The notes below the pieces were generated by a model. That model did no database searches. It saw nothing but the letters and a program-made list of their open reading frames with translations, and was not told the origin of the DNA. Source: a virus (Duplodnaviria > Heunggongvirae > Uroviricota > Caudoviricetes). Taken from it: a stretch of 4,597 nucleotides of DNA. The stretch is taken from IMG/VR virus record IMGVR_UViG_2657245068_000005, one strand, 5' to 3'. The position numbers and the translations under genes were made by a program. Below are positions 1,688-2,401 of this stretch, piece by piece; the first letter of the stretch is position 1; every line of letters starts with the position of its first letter.

Positions 1688-1873
1688 TTACTCTCCCCGT
1701 GCAGCCTTACGCTTGTCTTCTCTTATTTTGAAATACAGATTCGTCAGATAAGTCAGAAGCCCCAGAAGCAGACTTCCCAGCACACCAATCGCAGCCCACT
1801 GTGATGGCCTGACCTGATCCAACCACTGCAAAAACCAGTAGCCGGCACTGCCGGCGGAGGTGCCGTAGGCAAT
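1688..1873 (-). CDS. Holin paralog (S21-like), 3' portion only; 5' end lost in the N run
   Basis: It encodes ...[61 protein letters not shown], which differs at 3 residues from the intact holin at 1897-2112. The DNA is only about 90% identical, with mostly synonymous changes. The ORF-track N-terminus MSPSXXXX is an artefact of reading through the N run. Confidence 0.6.
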
Positions 1874-1883
1874 NNNNNNNNNN
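1874..1883. other. Run of 10 N (probable scaffold join)
   Basis: There are exactly 10 ambiguous bases, flanked on both sides by diverged copies of the holin gene. Confidence 0.95.
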
Positions 1884-1896
1884 AATGATGGCGACA

Positions 1897-2112
1897 TTAT
1901 TCACCTCTCGCAGCCTTACGCTTGTCTTCTCTGATTTTGAAGTACAGATTTGTCAGATAAGTCAGGAAGCCCAGAACCAGACTCCCCAGTACACCAATCG
2001 CAGCCCACTGTGACGGACTGACCTGATCAAGCCACTGTAAAAACCAGTAGCCAGCACTGCCTGCGGAGGTGCCGTAGGCAATGCCCGTTGAAATTTTGTC
2101 CATGGATTTCAT
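1897..2112 (-). CDS. S: Class II pinholin, phage 21 S21-type, with dual-start motif
   Basis: The 71-aa product [31 protein letters not shown]...[15 protein letters not shown] has two TM segments and the Met1-Lys2-Ser3-Met4 dual start, matching S21 as I recall it. A strong Shine-Dalgarno (GGAGGTGA) lies about 8 nt upstream of the ATG at 2112. Confidence 0.9.
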
Positions 2113-2184
2113 AGCCTCACCTCCGCAAATAACGGATGGCGTAGTTTTACACTGAGAAATGAAAGGGATTTGAAAAGAAAAAAA

Positions 2185-2391
2185 CGCAAAAGCGGGCGAA
2201 ACGATATATACAGTAAGGAAAGCACTCTATCCAACAAACCACCCACAGTTAATCGGAATAAAAGCAGAGTGCTTATGAATGATCGCACGCCCGAAGGTTA
2301 GTATTTCTGCACAGCAATTTTGCAAAAAAAGGCGATCATTCATAACTTAAACGTCTTTCAGTCACTCCGGGATTTCCCATCATCGCAGACT
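2185..2391. repeat. Direct repeat copy A (about 207 bp), truncated by the N run
   Basis: It is about 98% identical to 2403-2610, with 5 substitutions. It contains the same inverted repeats, with the third hairpin cut by the N run. Confidence 0.9.
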
Positions 2392-2401
2392 NNNNNNNNN
2401 N
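2392..2401. other. Run of 10 N (probable scaffold join)
   Basis: There are exactly 10 ambiguous bases between two near-identical 200-bp segments. Confidence 0.95.

Follow-up and report, generated by a model that had tools for sequence, protein, structure and literature searches.

The window analysed here, i.e. the whole stretch of 4,597 nt of the viral record, shows two holin genes one behind the other, and the question is whether a lambdoid prophage has duplicated its holin or whether the tandem arose when the sequence was assembled. The minus strand carries every gene of the window. Two runs of exactly 10 N each are situated at 1874-1883 and 2392-2401, and both are flanked by diverged repeats, as had been described in the original prediction. 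For the first repeat (1688-1873 versus 1897-2082), 186 nt were aligned with 21 mismatches and no gaps, resulting in an identity of 88.7%. For the second repeat (2185-2391 versus 2403-2609), the ungapped alignment of 207 nt contains 5 mismatches, corresponding to 97.6%. These values agree well with the earlier estimates of about 90% and 98%, with the second copy of the latter repeat ending at 2609 instead of 2610. Similarities of this size are far beyond chance, and the flanking sequences are, as judged from these alignments, homologous phage late regions.

The two holin copies differ in 18 codons, 15 of which are synonymous and three of which are not (R/S, L/V, and L/F). The predominance of synonymous differences, which had been predicted as well, is consistent with descent from functional genes. 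A real tandem duplication, with two holins and two spacers head to tail in one prophage and N runs that hide short stretches, would agree with two functional-looking holins, and the order of the scaffold pieces, taken alone, supports it. However, the pieces do not abut: the flanks of both gaps overlap in register and represent alternative versions of one region, which is the mark of a false duplication, and fixed-length placeholder gaps at both junctions are suggestive of misjoins. The earlier division of the window into three contigs joined by fixed 10-N spacers is thereby supported; they are called contig 1 (1-1873), contig 2 (1884-2391), and contig 3 (2402-4597) in the following. A 69-aa ORF that is read across the N run is spurious.

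An alignment of all versions of the region showed that contig 2, with a length of 508 nt, is a mosaic of two types, denoted A and B. Positions 1884-2062, with the start of the lysozyme gene rrrD and one holin gene (holin B), are B-type, positions 2063-2183 are common to both types, and positions 2184-2391 are A-type. The last part has the A-type base at each of the sites that separate the relatives L004 and L005 from L002 (2184, 2243, 2287-2288, and 2331). Base 2213 is a G in the A-type spacer and an A in contig 3, which starts with the B-type spacer. An arrangement in which contigs 2 and 3 overlap at locus B and contig 1 alone is foreign was ruled out, because the right part of contig 2 is A-type at all diagnostic sites.

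The contigs were then recombined in silico and compared with the relatives. The reconstruction of locus A (1-1873 plus 2083-2391, 2182 nt) is 100.000% identical, without gaps, to the uninterrupted contigs L010 and L008, and equally 100% identical to six finished chromosomes, including AE014073.1 of S. flexneri 2457T. The reconstruction of locus B (1884-2183 plus 2402-4597, 2496 nt) is 100.000% identical to L014 and to the three finished chromosomes L044, L045, and L046. The original prediction had regarded contigs 1 and 3 as neighbours and the middle piece as the only foreign sequence. The corresponding reconstruction (1-1873 plus 2083-2183 plus 2402-4597, 4170 nt) has no full-length match, and its longest match comprises 2831 nt at 95.7% identity. 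Since each of the two crossed reconstructions matches at 100%, contig 1 is to be paired with the right part of contig 2, and contig 3 with the left part, so that this portion of the prediction did not hold. The involvement of a paralogous lambdoid prophage with a different lysis cassette was correctly foreseen, but the middle piece does not stem wholly from that prophage, being a hybrid of A and B.

With loci A and B together, all bases of the window are explained at 100% identity, and no base needs a tandem arrangement; this perfect two-locus decomposition contradicts a duplication. The first N run (1874-1883) is a false join of locus A to locus B, and the second (2392-2401) is a false join between the A-type and the B-type copy of one spacer. 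It is very likely that the window is a short-read scaffold in which two separate lambdoid prophage remnants, both decayed by insertion sequences, have been interleaved, and that it stems from a chromosome of the Shigella flexneri type, the species being suggested by the 100% matches.

In the finished chromosomes, the two loci are far apart. LR213455.1 has locus A at 3.26 Mb (1 mismatch in 2182 nt) and locus B at 1.91 Mb (0 in 2496 nt), i.e. at a distance of 1.35 Mb, and in CP182555.1 they are found at 0.71 Mb and 1.95 Mb, respectively, 1.23 Mb apart. The loci lie on opposite strands in both chromosomes. E. coli FDAARGOS_944 also carries both loci, at 5.02 Mb and 0.65 Mb. The parental arrangement is present in every place that was displayed or grouped as similar (37 place-records, with A and B counted separately), and the source genome of the window probably shares it. 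The chromosome of S. flexneri SFBU1023 has a base change that is otherwise private to contig 1, which makes a draft of this species the most likely source of the window.

The layout of the window was searched for in 5,426 complete E. coli genomes, and at no place was more than 83% of the window covered, compared with about 99% expected for a real tandem. The joined layout was not found in any complete genome or uninterrupted contig examined. The late regions of the best-matching complete E. coli genomes contain Q, four tRNA genes, a spacer of about 290 nt, one holin, and lysis genes, and each uninterrupted late region examined has one full-length holin, so that tandem full-length holins were never encountered. 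The two copies in the window are separated by an N run, and close relatives do not have the same arrangement, neither of which is expected of a tandem duplication. Moreover, the rrrD stub next to the second copy ends at the IS66 junction of a locus that is 1.2-1.35 Mb away in finished chromosomes. Taken together, the apparent tandem holin is a scaffold artefact, as had been proposed, and a real tandem duplication is extremely improbable.

The part of locus A in the window starts within an insertion sequence. The left edge of contig 1 (1-58) is the end of an IS3-family element, with window base 1 lying inside this end, and the matches of E. coli relatives begin at base 59. Bases 1-57 recur beside IS3-family transposase genes (Pfam HTH_Tnp_1 plus rve) in the relatives L033-L035 and L008. 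In L033-L035, the same 57 nt are found on the other side of an oppositely oriented IS copy, a possible sign that S. flexneri chromosomes have been rearranged by insertion sequences. The element truncates the Rz-type lysis gene (i-spanin, 55-459, minus strand; PF03245, E = 2.4e-23) and shortens its 3' end, and the product has 134 aa in the IS-bearing chromosomes versus 155 aa when intact. The adjacent gene (456-989, minus strand) encodes the endolysin, a phage lysozyme of 177 aa (PF00959, E = 5.4e-24), and is also annotated as a lysozyme in finished genomes.

Between the endolysin and the holin of locus A, a 209-aa ORF is situated (1055-1684, minus strand). It belongs to PHROG 1085 (unknown function), and no family was matched in a search with Pfam profiles. 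The exact 209-aa protein adjoins holin A in finished chromosomes. In complete E. coli genomes, its gene is rare: when it was used as a query together with the holin A fragment, a coverage of 80% or more was reached in only 16 of 5,426 genomes. In the assembly collection, 3,334 indexed blocks contain the identical protein, most of them on contigs of less than 10 kb. Relatives have YdfR or DUF1327 genes at the position of this ORF.

The window contains the last 61 codons and the stop codon of holin A (1688-1873, minus strand). The first 10 codons are missing because contig 1 ends there, which is not biology; in uninterrupted relatives, the gene runs on at 100% identity into sequence equal to 2083-2391. 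The A-type spacer (2184-2391) is part of locus A in spite of its linkage to holin B in contig 2. Beyond the window, the spacer of locus A is followed by a tRNA cluster of the order Gly-Thr-Arg-Ile. The locus A prophage of FDAARGOS_944 likewise has a tRNA-Arg in place of the tRNA-Lys of the window, and its Q region differs; the Q protein of locus A has 126 aa (PF06530). A join of 1873 to sequence near 2112, which the original prediction had named as a confirmation of the artefact, would be seen, but it would lead to the tRNA-Arg cluster outside the window and not to contig 3. In the source genome, the order of locus A would be IS3-family element, truncated Rz, lysozyme, 209-aa ORF, holin A, and spacer, followed by the tRNA Gly-Thr-Arg-Ile cluster.

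At locus B, the 5' stub of rrrD (1884-1897, minus strand; ATG at 1895-1897) forms the beginning of contig 2, at a distance of 3 nt from the end of an IS66-family element. The gene is intact in L002, and in L014, L012, and L038 just 17 nt are left, which are followed by the IS66-family end GTAAGCGCCCC. IS66 genes adjoin the holin in L041-L050. The earlier reading of a TAATG overlap at the holin stop and of the following MSPS codons was correct; what was taken for the first codons of a different gene is by ancestry rrrD, cut down to a 17-nt stub by the IS66-family element.

Holin B (1897-2112, minus strand) is a complete class II holin of 71 aa of the phage 21 S-type. It matches PF04971 with E = 1.4e-35 and 121.5 bits (cut-off 26) over profile positions 1-63 of 64 and is thus a full-length member of the family. 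L001-L003 have the same holin with 100% identity (RefSeq WP_000839572.1). The N-terminus reads MKSMDK. A start of MKSM is the dual-start arrangement of S21, and Met1 and Met4 would be the putative starts of antiholin and holin. Holin A, unlike holin B, has a lysozyme downstream: no functional endolysin partner was found for holin B, as rrrD is the 17-nt stub in the relatives with 100% identity.

The B-type spacer (2402-2622) belongs between holin B and tRNA-Gly. It is followed by four phage tRNA genes (2623-2932, minus strand) with the anticodon CAT and for Lys-TTT, Thr-TGT, and Gly-TCC. The CAT tRNA was classified as Met by ARAGORN versus Ile by RefSeq. An Rfam scan of the window yielded the four tRNAs and nothing else. 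In locus A, the cluster (3470-3780 of L010) contains Arg-TCT versus Lys-TTT in locus B, and the other three tRNAs are common to both. Further genes of locus B, all on the minus strand, encode the late-gene antiterminator Q (3131-3820; PF06323, E = 3.7e-91), the Holliday-junction resolvase RusA (3811-4176; PF05866, E = 8.7e-16), and a DUF968 protein, of which the 3' part is present as the gene runs off the window (4177-4597; PF06147, E = 3.9e-47). Q was predicted as an ORF of 229 aa starting with GTG, versus 227 aa in finished chromosomes whose DNA is 100% identical, and a look-up of the exact product of 229 aa retrieved one contig only. A different choice of the start codon is the most likely reason. 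The order of locus B in the source genome would be IS66-family element, 17-nt rrrD stub, holin B, spacer, tRNA Gly-Thr-Lys-Ile, Q, RusA, and DUF968.

A GC-rich hairpin with T runs on both strands (AAAACCCGC TTGT GGGCGGGTTTT) was observed at 3040-3063, between Q and the tRNA cluster. It resembles a terminator and is possibly a candidate site for read-through by Q, with one such site being no more than shuffled sequence gives.

Several additional observations were made in the spacer. An ORF of 38 aa (MNDR...) is present on the minus strand in both copies (2227-2343 and 2445-2561), and it is a called gene in the relative L047 (6134-6250); two of the A/B differences alter residues of this ORF. The spacer also contains a perfect inverted repeat of 14 nt (2273-2286 and 2332-2345; TTATGAATGATCGC and GCGATCATTCATAA). 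No covariation at the A/B sites was seen by eye in this inverted repeat, because the A/B sites do not pair.

Two stretches are identical in both loci. S1 (2063-2183, 121 nt) is the longest exact run between L010 (locus A) and L014 (locus B) in this part, and it is here that contig 2 crosses from B to A. S2 (2550-2756, 207 nt) comprises the end of the spacer, tRNA-Gly, and most of tRNA-Thr. We built a toy de Bruijn graph from loci A and B of the relatives and a third copy of the holin, using eight k values from 41 to 77. Node ends were obtained at 1873 and 2391 only at k=61, where they coincide exactly with the contig ends, and, whichever k was used, the B path leaves S1 with 2402 as its first new base. 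Therefore, three internal contig ends (1873, 2391, and 2402) are located on exact branch points, and the fourth (1884) is located at the edge of an insertion sequence. It also speaks against a tandem duplication that the copy beside the 209-aa gene is deprived of its start precisely where a node of the graph ends.

The third holin copy is found in L008 (IMGVR_UViG_2648501245_000003), an uninterrupted contig of 30 kb with two late regions (2900-4000 and 11950-14462) that are about 9 kb apart and have the same orientation. Both have a tRNA Met/Ile-Arg-Thr-Gly cluster. The first late region contains a holin remnant of 30 aa (3909-3998), 8.6 kb from the complete copy. This partial copy is identical to locus A from window position 1814 onward and has 63 nt in common with it, and this shared sequence is the reason why contig 1 ends at 1873.

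The contig ends and the order of the pieces could be generated as follows. With a k of presumably about 61, the shared stretches S1 and S2 would collapse, and A and B would become parallel branches through common nodes. The scaffolder would have put these parallel branches in series, i.e. a1 / b1-S1-a2 / b2-S2-b3. Neighbours with a common graph edge would have been merged, yielding the hybrid contig of 508 nt, and neighbours that overlap in position yet could not be merged would have received a minimal spacer of 10 N between them. The minimum gap of 10 N and the omission of the k-1 prefix of later nodes are, in our assumption, Velvet-like conventions; a literature search on a "10 Ns" convention of Velvet yielded nothing usable.

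Other drafts break at the same points. N-split pieces at the same locus were observed in IMGVR_UViG_2700989169_000005 (L009, L027, and L011) and in IMGVR_UViG_2667527998_000003 (L006 and L013), and the former record includes an identical 508-nt hybrid (L027). Two details deviate from the graph: one related draft ends contig 1 at 1857 and not at 1873, for which the k=61 model has no explanation, and L013 begins 1 nt before the position predicted by the model. It is known that homologous lambdoid prophages fragment short-read assemblies (PMC7175801, PMC10925052).

Contig 2 as written has a single 100% match, which is L027, the N-bounded 508-nt piece of another scaffolded draft. Its hybrid signature had no hit besides L027 in 2.9 million viral contigs and no hit in genome_contigs, and no full-length match of 100% was found in the 5,426 complete E. 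coli genomes. The best full-length match among the latter, in FDAARGOS_944, has an identity of 99.0%, and there the holin is followed by rrrD. The end of contig 1 (209-aa gene plus holin) is 99.8% identical to the same genome, but to a different prophage than the one matched by contig 2.

The hybrid could also be the product of a real reciprocal exchange, in which case contig 1, S1, and contig 3 would be contiguous, as in the original model, and contig 2 would faithfully represent the other prophage. Contig 2 has precisely the structure that a crossover should yield, and contig 1 plus S1 plus contig 3 would be the reciprocal product. About 690 nt around S1 are 99.1% identical between the loci, and the second draft has the identical 508-nt piece. 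As A and B are in inverted orientation, a crossover within the 121 nt of S1 would invert about 1.2-1.35 Mb, and the opposite strands in LR213455.1 and CP182555.1 make such an inversion topologically possible. However, neither recombinant junction was found in any uninterrupted sequence, the hybrid being confined to N-bounded pieces, the contiguous reconstruction has no full-length match, and all finished chromosomes shown are parental, several of them being 100% identical to the pieces of the window. Because the hybrid follows automatically from the serialised k=61 graph, it weighs little as evidence for an exchange.

We considered the hybrid contig 2 as proof of an assembler error backed by wrong reads and dropped this argument, as parental and recombinant genomes yield one and the same graph at k=61. 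For the same reason, the case against a real exchange rests on the finished relatives and not on the contigs. We regard the exchange as very unlikely. The related view that a crossover inside S1 occurred both in the source strain and in the strain behind IMGVR_UViG_2700989169_000005, so that only the placement of contig 2 is wrong, is highly unlikely.

Alternatively, contig 2 might represent a real third locus, i.e. an IS66-truncated rrrD-holin B module with a natural A-type spacer, and the scaffold would then string together three loci. Natural spacer mosaics do occur in E. coli, such as L003 with both A-type and B-type bases, and holin B is found with a near-A-type spacer at identities of 99.2-99.4% over bases 27-508 of contig 2. 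Relatives also possess a partial third copy of the holin. On the other hand, a second identical IS66-rrrD junction would be required, the exact combination is present in no complete genome or uninterrupted contig, and two loci already suffice for every base of the window at 100% identity. A third locus is thus highly improbable, and the interleaving of two remnants in a scaffold remains the favoured explanation.

With the pieces assigned to two loci, the underlying biology is ordinary: there is no biological duplication of a holin, and the window derives from two lambdoid late regions, most probably of Shigella flexneri, that have decayed through insertion sequences. In locus B, an intact holin is still present together with Q and the tRNAs, and the insertion of the IS66-family element has cost it the endolysin and the spanin. 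The holin and the lysozyme persist in locus A, as does the 209-aa ORF, and the Rz gene is truncated there. Taken at face value, the scaffold implies a duplicated holin and a novel order of holin, rrrD stub, and holin, as well as a prophage that pairs the 209-aa gene with the Q/tRNA-Lys module, none of which exist. Automatic annotation already yields the spurious 69-aa ORF, and a prophage caller would report one chimeric "virus" from two remnants. This chimeric "virus" occurs more than once in the public virus collection. More generally, fixed 10-N junctions together with diverged repeats in enterobacterial prophages should be treated as graph tangles, and where two such junctions enclose a short piece, this piece may in turn combine sequence from different paralogues.

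False duplications have been described as a class of assembly error for vertebrate assemblies (PMC9516828). As in that class, diverged versions of one region (88.7% and 97.6% identity) are placed side by side across N gaps and give rise to an apparent extra gene copy. In contrast to it, the versions are not haplotypes but prophage remnants that are paralogous within a haploid bacterial chromosome, and one piece of the window is a hybrid of both copies. The window also resembles the known fragmentation of short-read assemblies of E. coli and Shigella, since contigs end at repeats shared by prophages (S1, S2, and the third holin remnant) and at the ends of IS3- and IS66-family elements. However, contig breaks and the loss of context are described there (PMC7175801, PMC10925052), and not an interleaved scaffold of this kind.

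The gene content of both loci can be compared with the lysis cassette of phage 21, which consists of the class II holin S21 (a pinholin), a signal-anchor-release endolysin, and Rz/Rz1. Both holins belong to PF04971, "Bacteriophage P21 holin S", the ancestral partner of holin B is rrrD, and the lysozyme of locus A belongs to PF00959 and is accompanied by an Rz gene. The cassettes differ from that of phage 21 in that both are decayed, with rrrD cut to 17 nt by the IS66-family element and Rz truncated by the IS3-family element, and in that locus A has an extra 209-aa ORF between the holin and the endolysin.
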